Below, one piece after another: positions 11,536 to 15,924 of a DNA stretch of 16,333 bases. The translations under genes and the position numbers were made by a program. The first letter of the stretch is position 1. Each line of letters starts with the position of its first letter. Source of the DNA: an uncultured archaeon (GTDB taxonomy: Archaea > Asgardarchaeota > Lokiarchaeia > Sigyniarchaeales > SOKP01). The stretch lies in NCBI GenBank assembly GCA_964388035.1, contig CAYLZE010000112.1:1-16333 (forward strand), in the 5' to 3' direction. The notes under the pieces are model-generated. The model made no database searches and was not told the DNA's origin. It saw only the letters and a list, made by a program, of their open reading frames with translations.

Positions 11536-11610
11536 TTTAACCTTTTTCTTTCTACTTGCCCTCAAAACCCTTTAATACAAGAATTTCATAAAATTTAATT
11601 AGAATATTTC

Positions 11611-11622
11611 CTTTTTTATTAT
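11611..11622 (+). promoter_or_regulatory. TATA-like element (CTTTTTTATTAT), candidate promoter for the permuted 5S transcript
   Basis: This is an AT-rich box upstream of the 5S island. Archaeal TSSs lie about 25 nt downstream of TATA, giving a start near 11640-11650, upstream of the BHB leader strand. A second candidate (ATAAAATTTA, about 11588-11597) would also include the outer helix strand 11631-11639. Confidence 0.25.
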
Positions 11623-11653
11623 CACTAAATACCACACATGTATGCATTTCGCA

Positions 11654-11665
11654 CCCATCTGGAAG
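11654..11665 (+). other. 5' (leader) strand of a bulge-helix-bulge-like processing motif: CCCAU (outer helix), CUGG (central helix), AAG (3-nt bulge)
   Basis: 11654-11658 pairs with 11787-11791, and 11659-11662 pairs with 11780-11783. 11663-11665 is left unpaired. See findings. Confidence 0.55.
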
Positions 11666-11785
11666 TTAAACTTTCTCACGTTAATTTAAGTAGTGTGATT
11701 GCGATTCATGCGAACAATTAAACTGTAAAGTTATTTACGGTCATGGTGAAAAAGGATAATACCTGGTCCCATTCCGAACCCAGAA
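11665..11785 (+). rRNA. rrf: 5S rRNA, circularly permuted gene order. 11665-11729 encodes the canonical 3' part, 11730-11733 is a GUUA cap, and 11734-11785 encodes the canonical 5' part.
   Basis: Helix I: 11734-11741 UUUACGGU / 11722-11729 ACUGUAAA (8 bp, 1 GU). Helix II: 11746-11754 GUGAAAAAG / 11671-11679 CUUUCUCAC (8 of 9 bp). Helix III: 11763-11766 CUGG / 11780-11783 CCAG, enclosing the 13-nt loop C UCCCAUUCCGAAC. Helix V: 11681-11686 UUAAUU / 11716-11721 AAUUAA. Loop E: AGUA (11689-11692) opposite GAA (11712-11714). Helix IV: 11693-11698 GUGUGA / 11706-11711 UCAUGC. The rotated sequence reads ...CAUUCCGAACCCAGAA-GUUAAAC..GUAGUGUG...CAUGCGAAC..., matching conserved 5S blocks. The rotated length is 121 nt. 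Confidence 0.8.
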
Positions 11786-11791
11786 CGTGGG
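11780..11791 (+). other. 3' (trailer) strand of the bulge-helix-bulge-like motif: CCAG (central helix), AAC (3-nt bulge), GUGGG (outer helix)
   Basis: This is the complement of the leader strand 11654-11662. The 3-nt bulge 11784-11786 lies 3' of the 4-bp central helix, mirroring the bulge at 11663-11665. Confidence 0.55.
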
Positions 11792-11799
11792 GTGTGTGG

Positions 11800-11804
11800 T
11801 TTTT
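11800..11804 (+). terminator. Oligo-T tract (T5) ending the 5S transcription unit
   Basis: GGTTTTTG lies immediately after the trailer helix. A second T-rich tract follows at about 11821-11834. Confidence 0.4.
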
Positions 11805-11929
11805 GAAAAAATTTAAGCTTGCTTTTCTTTTTTTAAATTCTATTGAATCCTTCCAACCTCTAAAATAACTTTTTAAGCAGTCCATAATACATTTCATTAG
11901 GACTATATAATAGGAACTGAAGAATTCAA

Positions 11930-12436
11930 ATGCCAAATAAGATAATTGTCGTCCTCAAGTCAATCGGGAGATATTGGTTTACGCTTTTAATCATAACTAT
12001 TATTATTGTAGCGTTCTATAACCAACAAGCAGCAATCATCATTGCAATTATCACATTAGTGCTTTATATAATCTCTTACATTCCTTTTCTTGTTTTTAGG
12101 AGTCGTCTCTTAAGAAATTTGAAGAAATTTAATCGAGTTGATGATGCCACTATTGCTAAAAAAATGGGCAAAGATCTTAAATCTATTAAAAATAAGTTAT
12201 TTTCCTTATCTCAACATCAAGAGAAAAAGAAATGGTTGGTTATTTTTACCAATAAAACCTACATTTTTTATGCTCCTAAAACCATTAGTGAGTATAAAAA
12301 ACTTTATGAGAAAAAAAAAGAAGAAACTCAAATTTTAGAGGAATTAAAAAAATTCGATATCAATTCCAAGGAAGAAATTAAGAACATTAAAGAAGCGCTA
12401 TTAAAATTTAGAAGAATATCTCCTATCTCGGAATAA
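11930..12436 (+). CDS. Hypothetical membrane protein (two N-terminal TM helices, Lys-rich cytoplasmic tail)
   Basis: 168 aa. Hydrophobic segments are WFTLLIITIIIVAFY and AAIIIAIITLVLYIISYIPFLVF, followed by a charged C-terminal half. No family was recognised. Confidence 0.5.
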   Translation: MPNKIIVVLKSIGRYWFTLLIITIIIVAFYNQQAAIIIAIITLVLYIISYIPFLVFRSRLLRNLKKFNRVDDATIAKKMGKDLKSIKNKLFSLSQHQEKKKWLVIFTNKTYIFYAPKTISEYKKLYEKKKEETQILEELKKFDINSKEEIKNIKEALLKFRRISPISE

Positions 12437-14853: not shown

Positions 14854-14938
14854 CTTTTGTTAATTTATATTCTTCCTAAATATTATTAGTGGTTTTTATA
14901 CATGTATTAAAAGAAGAAAGAATTTATAATATTAGTTG

Positions 14939-15406
14939 TTATGAGAGTTCTACTTGCAAAAACTTTTTTGATCGCAAAAAAATTAAATTGACTTTTATTT
15001 TTCGTGCTTCCCGCCTTAAATTTTTATCATTACTGGCAAGAAACACTCGAAAGGAGGCATTATTCAATTCTTTTAGTTTTCTAATCAAAAATTCATCCGT
15101 AGTTTCATCAAGATTCTTTCTCTCATTAACGATTTGTAAATCATAGCTTGACTGCATTTTCTCCAAATATCTCAATCCTGCTTCATATTGCAACTGGAAT
15201 TTTTGCTTTTCTTCGTTTCTTGCTTTTTTAGCATTCAATTCATCTAATGACTGCTGATATATCATGAAATTAGTGCTTCCCTCCAAAAGGTAAGTAATTT
15301 CCTCAAAATAATTAATCTTATATTGAAAAGGAAGTAAAATAAAATTTGAGTCAATAACCACTTTGTTGACTTGTTTTCTTTCCATATTCTCTGTCGTTGA
15401 TTTCAA
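14939..15406 (-). CDS. PIN-domain nuclease, Fcf1/Utp24-like (COG1412-type)
   Basis: 155 aa from a TTG start that overlaps the upstream stop as TTGA. An ATG at 15385 would give 148 aa. Acidic PIN residues occur in VVIDSNFILLP, DELNAK, ETTDEFL and FLASNDKNLRREARK, the last resembling the Fcf1 (A/T)TQDxxLKRR block. Confidence 0.6.
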   Translation of the reverse strand: MKSTTENMERKQVNKVVIDSNFILLPFQYKINYFEEITYLLEGSTNFMIYQQSLDELNAKKARNEEKQKFQLQYEAGLRYLEKMQSSYDLQIVNERKNLDETTDEFLIRKLKELNNASFRVFLASNDKNLRREARKIKVNLIFLRSKKFLQVELS

Positions 15407-15924
15407 GGGGGTAAACGCTCTAATATTCTTCCCGTCAATCTTGAGAAGGTTTCCTTAACATTCTCTCCCGTTTTGGAAGAAACTTTAACAAAATCAAAGA
15501 AATTAAATTGTTCTAAAAAGGAAAGCGCATAATCATCTTGAACCATGATATCATCCATTAAATCCAGCTTAGTTCCTACAAATAATATCGGAAGCGTGGG
15601 ATCATGTTTGCGGACTATGGTCACCCACTGCTCTAAGTTATCCAGGGTCATCGGGCGGGTGAGATCGAACATCAGCAATGCACCCTTGGCCCCCAGGACG
15701 TAACTCTCCAATAGAAATCGGAACCGCTCCTGTCCCCCGAAATCCCATAGCTGCAAAGTACAACTTGCGCCATCAATCTCTACTTCTTGGAGGAAAAACT
15801 CGACTCCTATCGTCATTTTGGTATCCGCAGTAAAGTTCCCTTCCACGTAACGATGTAGCAGCGTGGTCTTGCCCACTCCCCCTTCTCCCGCTGTTAATAT
15901 CTTTAAAATGAATTTCTTTGGCAT
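15403..15924 (-). CDS. Ras-superfamily small GTPase (Rab/Ras-like)
   Basis: 173 aa. G1 is GEGGVGKTT, switch I is TIGVEF, G3 is WDFGGQERF, G4 is VGTKLD (Thr replaces the canonical Asn of NKxD) and G5 is SSKTG. There is no C-terminal CAAX/CC prenylation motif. An SD-like GGAGTGA lies 12 nt upstream of the ATG. Confidence 0.85.
   Translation of the reverse strand: MPKKFILKILTAGEGGVGKTTLLHRYVEGNFTADTKMTIGVEFFLQEVEIDGASCTLQLWDFGGQERFRFLLESYVLGAKGALLMFDLTRPMTLDNLEQWVTIVRKHDPTLPILFVGTKLDLMDDIMVQDDYALSFLEQFNFFDFVKVSSKTGENVKETFSRLTGRILERLPP

Follow-up and report, generated by a model that had tools for sequence, protein, structure and literature searches.

The contig CAYLZE010000112.1 of an uncultured archaeon of the class Lokiarchaeia, analysed here as the complete 16,333 bp deposited at NCBI (the window), carries a circularly permuted gene for 5S ribosomal RNA (rRNA). 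The part that encodes the 3' portion of the molecule (11665-11729) lies upstream of the part that encodes the 5' portion (11734-11785), and between them lie only the four nucleotides of a loop that closes helix I (11730-11733). We can confirm this as a real and conserved permuted 5S rRNA gene of Lokiarchaeia, furnished with a bulge-helix-bulge (BHB) processing signal: the permuted order is kept across deep lineages, and both the 5S fold and the BHB geometry are maintained there with covariation. We further consider it probable that this is the functional 5S gene of the Lokiarchaeial (Promethearchaeota) genome, and that its transcript is spliced at the BHB into a circle. A first-pass annotation, made from the letters of the window, had proposed a permuted 5S with its 3' part upstream and a 4-nt linker. 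Its coordinates and part-by-part description agree with the window exactly, and its central claim is upheld by 18 Lokiarchaeial loci in which the arrangement is retained with compensatory changes. To our knowledge all cellular genomes are assumed to encode 5S rRNA colinearly, an assumption on which annotation pipelines rely.

The identity of the gene becomes clear when its two parts are placed in conventional order. Joining 11734-11785 to 11665-11729 gives a 117-mer that, folded without constraints, adopts the 5S three-way junction (helices I to V) as its structure of minimum free energy, as expected of the canonical 117-nt 5S that rotation had been claimed to yield; in genomic order the same helices are able to form, with helix I as a hairpin. 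We compared both orders with a profile hidden Markov model (HMM) built from 59 distinct ordinary colinear 5S genes, none of them from Lokiarchaeia. The rotated window gave a single continuous match (profile positions 7-90, 46.5 bits, E 6e-15) and the genomic order gave two matches in swapped order (positions 6-52 at 29.7 bits and 37-90 at 7.2 bits). The earlier prediction that only the rotated order would match a 5S model in full therefore held, here with a profile HMM and not a covariance model. Across all 18 loci the rotated sequences produced one match of 39-67 bits each in 17 cases; the remaining one (L190), which carries an insertion, produced a main match of 41.7 bits and a minor one. 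In genomic order every locus gave two swapped matches, or three in L190. Reciprocally, a covariance model (R1) built from the rotated Lokiarchaeial sequences matched genuine bacterial and haloarchaeal 5S genes across model positions 1-117, mostly at 41-55 bits (E 3e-10 to 5e-7) and at 24-36 bits in the weakest cases, the sources including a Nitrospirae bacterium, Propionispira, Clostridium, an actinobacterium and Haloterrigena, among others. Full-length likeness to bona fide 5S genes is thus obtained only after rotation.

Rfam searches are in keeping with this. In genomic order the 5S model RF00001 found nothing at its gathering score of 38 bits, an expected consequence of the permutation and in line with the statement that the genomic order is not a valid 5S. 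Below that score it aligned helix III and loop C of the window only (model positions 27-51, 21.9 bits). The isolated 5' part, with truncated matches allowed, reached model positions 2-51 (24.5 bits, E 9e-4). Taken alone, the 3' halves from the window and from locus L012 gave no Rfam 5S match, probably through filters acting on short, A/U-rich pieces, and a longer 3' piece from locus L062 matched model positions 35-118 (27.5 bits, E 2e-4). Among Rfam families, searched at the gathering score and at E up to 10, 5S-type matches in the window were limited to RF00001; the family for permuted mitochondrial 5S (mtPerm-5S) found nothing there at either setting. The motifs of loop C (UCCCAUNCCGAAC), GAAGUUAAR and loop E (AGUA...GAA) are all present in the window, and are invariant or nearly so in alignments of related loci.

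The permuted order is not confined to one contig. A DNA pattern written for it (GTTAARC..AGTA..CCCATNCCGAAC) was observed once in the window, against 0.00 expected from window shuffles, and at 60 loci over 185,579 species-representative genomes. Archaea account for ten of the 60 (eight with the label Promethearchaeota or Promethearchaeia, two with 'uncultured archaeon'), and all ten, in GTDB species-representative metagenome-assembled genomes (MAGs), consist of the 3' part, a 4-nt loop and the 5' part, with the outer halves absent. Apart from the tandem 5S pairs described below, the other matches are due to chance or extend over the spacer that precedes an ordinary 5S gene, in a few cases together with the 3' end of a 23S gene. 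Seven further distinct loci, taken from NCBI, JGI, ENA and Logan assemblies, were reached through the protein encoded beside the gene, and so independently of the 5S sequence; all seven are permuted. A single-sequence search with this protein had returned only two relatives, and a profile of the neighbours was then used. Exact look-ups of proteins from the window gave no match, although the homology database contains this protein. Besides the window, the arrangement is present in 17 other Lokiarchaeial loci (18 in total), among them the single-contig genomes CP070831.1 (3.34 Mb) and CP070805.1 (2.27 Mb), which are the Lokiarchaeota assemblies bin108 and bin132 of Tirumalai et al. 2023 (PMC10833476). 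These data dispose of the objection, raised in the first-pass annotation, that the permuted order might be an assembly artefact. The window is a short MAG contig, which by itself would leave room for such an error, yet the same order is found in 18 independent assemblies whose sequences differ and whose synteny is conserved, including both single-contig genomes and contigs of 0.5-1 Mb. We regard an artefact as next to impossible.

Covariation provides the second line of support. RNAalifold recovers the 5S fold, with helices I, II, III, IV and V, from the rotated sequences: with 11 of them, compensatory changes fall at 17 of 31 pairs, and with 15 at 20 of 33. The compensatory pairs include helix II and helix I (whose terminal pair is CG, GC or UA), and so bridge both genomic halves. 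The assignment of 11665-11729 as the 3' part draws on this consensus and its compensatory changes, together with profile HMM positions 37-90 and, in the L062 homologue, Rfam positions 35-118. Flanking proteins are merely 35-50% identical between lineages, which indicates that the permuted arrangement is old.

The same results bear on whether the locus could be what a tandem 5S duplication left behind, a pseudogene or a relic in decay, with a working conventional copy elsewhere in the genome. The lack of an Rfam match at gathering score would fit a relic, as would the leader of the window, which partly resembles a degenerate 5' half and yields a weak colinear alignment over 11614-11731 (12.8 bits). 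We nonetheless find a relic very improbable. Compensatory changes run through 18 loci in spite of the divergence of the neighbouring proteins, leader and trailer helices covary, and the locus has promoter-like and terminator-like signals of its own. The likeness of the leader to a 5' half is not common to the other loci, and published 5S prediction failed in Asgard assemblies, closed ones included (PMC8813620). A colinear gene at 11614-11731, read from that Rfam global alignment (E 9.5), was rejected, only its 3' half aligning well. The leader as a 'degenerate 5' half' was rejected likewise; elsewhere the same stretch forms the BHB outer helix and a small hairpin. A metagenome scan for colinear Lokiarchaeia-like 5S genes returned at least 120 matches; all of those listed are ordinary 5S on contigs of 45-73% G+C, none of them resembled Lokiarchaeia, and the scan was uninformative.

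The sequences that flank the two parts of the gene form a BHB of 3-4-3 geometry in 18 of 18 loci: a central helix of 4 bp is flanked by two bulges of 3 nt on opposite strands, with an outer helix of 4-7 bp next to them. The leader consists of the outer strand, CYGG and AA↓G, and the trailer side of CCRG, AA↓N and the outer strand (arrows mark predicted cuts). This geometry defines the substrate of the archaeal tRNA-splicing endonuclease (PMC7758197). The central helix is CUGG/CCAG in 6 loci and CCGG/CCGG in 7, contains a wobble in 4, and is paired in 98.4% of alignment cells. Outer-helix variants include GCG/CGC, GCGU/ACGC and CACUAGA/UUUAGUG. Over the BHB alignments 94-97% of cells pair, and double-sided changes are seen at all five outer-helix pairs and at one central-helix pair (15-30 cells). 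None of 500 column shuffles attained the observed value in four of five BHB measures, and sliding the partner columns by one to three positions lowered pairing to 8-52%. The bulges follow a corresponding pattern. The third base of the leader bulge, which would be retained, is G in all 16 loci of the window type. The trailer bulge begins with AA in all of these and varies at its third base (C, A, U or G), as expected of a base that is predicted to be discarded.

The first-pass annotation had interpreted the shared CCCAU..GAA elements at the two ends as duplication remnants. As simple remnants they do not hold up: the flanks form a BHB, and the leader covaries with the trailer instead of copying the 5S. 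Six loci have CUGG in the leader where a remnant of a 5S copy would read CCAG, and a leader that is kept complementary, not identical, to the 5S favours function over remnant. A tandem-duplication origin of the permuted gene is in itself plausible, and is considered below.

The predicted cut sites can be compared between loci. Canonical archaeal tRNA introns are cut by the endonuclease after the second base of each bulge. Applied in silico to the window, this rule creates the joint ...CCAGAA + GUUAAAC..., which is the Rfam consensus ACuCggAAguUAAGc. One sublineage (L062 and L063) has a second breakpoint, inside loop C, where the leader reads GCG-CUGG-AA↓C-CAUCCGAACCCGGAAGUUAAAC... and the 5' part ends ...ACCCGG-UC↓A-CGC. 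The central BHB helix uses the 3' strand of helix III in the window type and its 5' strand in the loop-C type. The predicted product of the L062 type, GGUC+CCAUCCGAAC, is contiguous in the DNA of L189, and that of the window type (CCRGAA+GUUAAAC, as CCGGAA+GUUAAAC) is contiguous in the DNA of L062, so that each breakpoint validates the predicted ligation product of the other. These reciprocal consensus products arise only when the cut follows the second bulge base; other cuts give non-consensus products in L030, L062 and L063. A movable break is what would be expected if the RNA is rejoined.

An RNA that is trimmed or cut at the BHB and never ligated would instead stay permuted and linear: its ends would lie in the beta domain, helices II and III would hold it together and helix I would form a hairpin. 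Such a molecule could form the full set of helices in genomic order, and a permuted mature 5S does exist in brown-algal mitochondria (PMC4267664). We judge it improbable here. The products of the endonuclease, a 2',3'-cyclic phosphate and a 5'-OH, are the natural substrates of archaeal ligases (PMC7758197), and the predicted joints match conserved 5S exactly. Moreover, the breakpoint has moved between lineages while the sequence stayed unchanged, as would be expected if continuity is restored, and the loop-C type would otherwise carry a nick in a conserved loop.

Two loci contain insertions. In L190 (1228-1378, identical in L191; ENA scaffold, NCBI CAZALK010000001.1, 998 kb) 31 nt are inserted in loop C, as GGUCCCAU↓U GGGGCAGGGAUAAUACCCGGUCCC GGGAAA↓CCGAAC. 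The insertion could form a relaxed BHB with a central helix UCCC/GGGA, bulges AUU and AAC and an intron hairpin, and canonical cuts would give GGUCCCAU+CCGAAC, the exact loop C of L062 and L189. We consider this single sequence type a candidate intron in a 5S rRNA gene. L189 (CP070805.1, bin132) has an insertion of ~30 nt at ~1270-1300, in the helix IV/loop D hairpin (AGUACUUCUGUUGCGAUAUGUAAAUCUCUGCGAUUAGCAUGCAGAAUCAGUGGGAA), and its predicted circle would measure 150 nt.

We are now able to propose a pathway for the expression of this gene, in which the limits of transcription, the cleavage, the ligation and the final topology are all predicted from sequence. A single transcript of ~170 nt would run from a TATA-type promoter to an oligo-T run. 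Leader and trailer would pair into a distal stem and the 3-4-3 BHB, whose central helix would borrow the 3' strand of helix III. The tRNA-splicing endonuclease would cut after the second base of each bulge, between 11664 and 11665 and between 11785 and 11786, and an RtcB-type ligase would then join ...CCAGAA to GUUAAAC..., restoring the beta domain of the 5S. The product would be a covalently closed 5S of 121 nt. A 4-nt loop would cap its helix I, and its helix III would now be free to form.

What becomes of the circle is a separate matter. The linker has 4 nt in 17 of 18 loci (UUCG in eight, UUUG in four, and CUUG, UACG, GUUA, GUCA and UUAG in one each) and 5 nt in one; it is UUCG or UACG in 9 of 18. 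Such a minimal and often stable loop without a spacer suggests a permanent cap and not a processing site. In E. coli, a 5S with a 4-nt connector between its native ends is tolerated by the ribosome (PMC7283268), and it is established that archaeal pre-16S and pre-23S rRNA are cleaved at a BHB and then ligated into circles (PMC7758197). Most likely, to judge from these features, the circle would be retained in the ribosome; its re-opening at the loop is the main alternative, and an unligated permuted RNA a weaker one. Re-opening would accept the same gene and BHB processing, with the circle as an intermediate that is opened at or near the 4-nt loop to give a linear 5S with free helix I ends. 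Precedent exists, permuted tRNAs and circular pre-16S and pre-23S rRNA being re-linearised in known archaeal and red-algal systems (PMC7758197; PMC4267664 for Cyanidioschyzon tRNAs), and the loop sequence itself is not conserved. The constancy of loop length and the frequency of UUCG or UACG argue against it, pointing to selection for a stable cap over a processing site. Between the native 5S ends there is neither a spacer nor a recognisable cleavage signal, which also counts against re-opening, and E. coli ribosomes tolerate the closure of helix I (PMC7283268). We therefore hold re-opening to be unlikely, with more in its favour than the absence of ligation.

Several points weigh against splicing into a circle. 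The inner helix of the BHB, GUU/AAC in the window type, is invariant there and thus uninformative, and is absent in the loop-C type; with an inner helix that is weak or absent, the BHB is therefore of the relaxed form. Of the two flanking helices of the strict hBHBh' form, the outer one is present and covaries. The BHB conformer of the window lies 4.5 kcal/mol above the predicted minimum-free-energy fold. This gap ranges from 0 to 4.7 kcal/mol across loci, and in only four of them does the minimum-free-energy fold contain every one of the eight BHB pairs tested. The central BHB helix also competes with helix III, with which it has the strand CCAG in common. Finally, according to a 2026 paper, processing in archaea passes through circles for 16S and 23S but not for 5S (PMC12918454), a statement that rests on other archaea.

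In a circular product nothing would fix where the break falls; this freedom would explain why there are two breakpoints, and also the candidate BHB intron that a third variant carries in loop C. On this basis we put forward, tentatively, and with rather less assurance than an even chance would warrant, that the mature ribosomal 5S of Lokiarchaeia is a circle made by tRNA splicing from a permuted gene whose break can wander, and that a similar trick could underlie the 'missing' 5S of other Asgard archaea such as Heimdallarchaeia.

The regions outside the BHB contain further signals (Table 1). The first TATA-like box of the window ends 24 nt before the distal stem, and most related loci have a TATA-like CTTATAWAATGG or a variant of it ~25 nt upstream of their distal leader stem (L012, L031, L047, L062, L063, L189, L190 and L193, with related A/T-rich boxes elsewhere). 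This recurring A/T-rich motif looks like a common TATA-type promoter of the 5S unit. In 17 of 18 loci leader and trailer also form a perfect distal stem of 8-14 bp, and in the window and several related loci this is followed by T-runs, immediately or within ~25 nt. By these signals the flanks are arranged as in an archaeal transcription unit that stands on its own and includes a processing stem. With the promoter-like box upstream, the T-run downstream and 4 nt between them, both 5S parts would belong to a single unit. A scan of the window for sigma-70 promoters and intrinsic terminators, which has no bearing on an archaeon, gave nothing above chance. Between the distal stem and the BHB outer helix most leaders contain a small hairpin, often ..UUCGC.. 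(for example GCAGCUCUUCGCUGC and GUAGCGAUUCGCUAC), and lineage-specific conserved blocks lie farther upstream, such as GTTTTAAGTTATCAATTTCTTAGAAATTGAGA in L019, L024 and L030.

Table 1. Features of the permuted 5S rRNA locus, in window coordinates.
Feature	Position	Strand	Details
Candidate archaeal promoter	11594-11622	+	Putative TATA-like boxes TTTAATTAGAATAT (11594-11607) and TTTTTTATTAT (11612-11622)
Distal processing stem, 5' strand	11631-11638	+	ACCACACA, perfect 8-bp complement of 11793-11800
Leader spacer with small hairpin	11639-11653	+	UGUAUGCAUUUCGCA
BHB outer helix, 5' strand	11654-11658	+	CCCAU, pairs with GUGGG 11787-11791
BHB central 4-bp helix, leader strand	11659-11662	+	CUGG, pairs with CCAG 11780-11783
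Leader 3-nt bulge	11663-11665	+	AAG; predicted endonuclease cut between 11664 and 11665
5S 3' part	11665-11729	+	GUUAAAC...ACUGUAAA; loop B/helix III' (GUUAAAC), helix II', helix V, loop E, helix IV, loop D, helix I'
Loop closing helix I	11730-11733	+	GUUA, 4 nt
5S 5' part	11734-11785	+	UUUACGGU...CCCAGAA; helix I, loop A, helix II, helix III, loop C
Helix III	CUGG 11763-11766 with CCAG 11780-11783	+	Loop C 11767-11779
Trailer-side 3-nt bulge	11784-11786	+	AAC; predicted cut between 11785 and 11786
BHB outer helix, 3' strand	11787-11791	+	GUGGG
Distal processing stem, 3' strand	11793-11800	+	UGUGUGGU
Oligo-T run	11800-11804	+	TTTTT; candidate archaeal terminator

The closest parallels are found among permuted tRNA genes, which are said to have been described by Soma et al. 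in 2007 in the Cyanidioschyzon merolae nucleus and by Chan et al. in 2011 in Thermofilum pendens; PMC4267664 cites the former. There too the 3' part lies upstream within one unit, the ends of the precursor form a BHB, and cleavage and ligation proceed via a circle. The gene described here differs in that it encodes 5S rRNA, has a bare 4-nt linker without RNase P or tRNase Z sites, may yield a circle that is never opened, and exists with two breakpoints within one archaeal class. Archaeal pre-16S and pre-23S rRNA and the permuted 23S of Pyrococcus furiosus (PMC7758197, PMC12918454) likewise have a leader/trailer stem with a 3-4-3 BHB, are taken to a circle by endonuclease and ligation, and may be circular or permuted in their ribosomal form. 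Their genes are colinear, and their BHB lies mostly in the flanking spacer or, in P. furiosus, presents the mature 23S ends; in Lokiarchaeia the 5S gene itself is permuted, and its joint falls inside conserved mature 5S, at the loop B/helix III boundary or in loop C.

Two permuted forms of 5S offer further comparison. The mtPerm-5S of brown-algal and stramenopile mitochondria (PMC4267664) has helix I closed as a hairpin and its ends elsewhere, as here. It is organellar, however, has its ends at the alpha/gamma junction, involves no BHB or ligation and remains permuted when mature, whereas the Lokiarchaeial break lies in the beta domain. The engineered permuted 5S of E. coli (Huang et al. 2020, PMC7283268) shares the joining of the native ends by a 4-nt connector; its new ends were placed in loop C or D and the ribosomes were active. 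Unlike the Lokiarchaeial gene it is artificial, was inserted into 23S rRNA and is not circularised.

A full-text literature search, with subscription journals thinly covered and an earlier description thus possible, turned up no account of an archaeal 5S that is permuted or circular, and the only permuted 5S on record is the mitochondrial one, which is of a different kind (PMC4267664). As far as we could find, then, a class-wide permuted 5S gene would be the first in any non-organellar genome, and the known principles of gene permutation and BHB circularisation would here apply to an RNA without a prior such case. Wu et al. 2022 (PMC8813620) stated that existing models could not predict 5S genes in their Asgard assemblies, which include two closed Heimdallarchaeum genomes and the two-contig Lokiarchaeote FW102. 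A permuted gene would explain this failure, including that in closed genomes, and provides a search model with which to mend both annotation and the scoring of MAG quality, which counts 5S. If our proposal is true, processing by BHB endonuclease and ligase extends to the third rRNA, and a circular 5S is predicted in the ribosome of the archaeal group used to model how eukaryotes originated. With two breakpoints and a candidate intron, this gene would also provide a natural system for studying how permuted RNA genes arise and drift.

As regards origin, a 5S-5S tandem is a plausible evolutionary starting state, by analogy with arrangements that turned up in the pattern search. About 25 matches from Selenomonadaceae and a few others proved to be complete colinear 5S-5S tandems with a spacer of a few bases, and so were ruled out as permuted genes; they are of use as controls. 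In these tandems (Selenomonadaceae, Propionispira, Culicoidibacterales and Haloterrigena; L002, L006, L016, L025, L035 and others) a 3' half is followed by a 5' half within a few bases, just as in the permuted gene; in contrast to it, both copies are complete, and there is neither a BHB nor hairpin closure of helix I. The loci from Selenomonadaceae and relatives are L002, L006, L008, L009, L011, L013-L015, L021, L025, L033, L036, L038, L040, L042, L051, L053, L054, L056 and L057, with further tandems in L016 and L035, and the tandems often lie at contig ends after rRNA operons.

The surroundings of the gene in the window are A/T-rich, with ~30% G+C, and archaeal in character. The window encodes aIF2-gamma, form III RuBisCO, Ras-family GTPases, a C25 peptidase and an MFS transporter; in the whole of it no tRNA gene was found, nor any Rfam family at gathering score. 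The nearest related loci are labelled 'Promethearchaeota archaeon' at NCBI (the phylum formerly called Lokiarchaeota). A 72-amino-acid open reading frame with a TTG start (11718-11936, minus strand) runs antisense to the 5S gene and overlaps its 5' part; though almost certainly spurious, it could be annotated by gene callers in place of the rRNA.

Synteny around the gene is conserved, with a C25 peptidase, then the 5S, then a membrane protein of 165-207 amino acids. This neighbour protein (11930-12436, plus strand, in the window) has no Pfam domain and adjoins the permuted 5S in every locus examined, the 5S being inverted relative to its gene in L066. A hydrophobic N-terminal region resembling two transmembrane helices is followed by a conserved soluble part. 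Its relatives number 193-244, and most of the named ones are Promethearchaeota or Lokiarchaeota, some bearing other Asgard labels. The latter include P0015, P0051, P0070, P0127, P0128, P0172 and others, from MAGs labelled Hodarchaeota, Hermodarchaeota, Thorarchaeota or Odinarchaeota at NCBI, whose orthologues are 70-85% identical to the protein of Lokiarchaeota bin108; L063 has Lokiarchaeial synteny and a permuted 5S. Given this identity and the features of L063, the non-Lokiarchaeial labels look unreliable. If they are correct, the permuted 5S would extend beyond Lokiarchaeia. A few kb downstream of the 5S gene, in the window (14889-15924) and in related loci, genes for Ras/Arf-family small GTPases, a PIN-domain protein and a cupin follow in conserved order.

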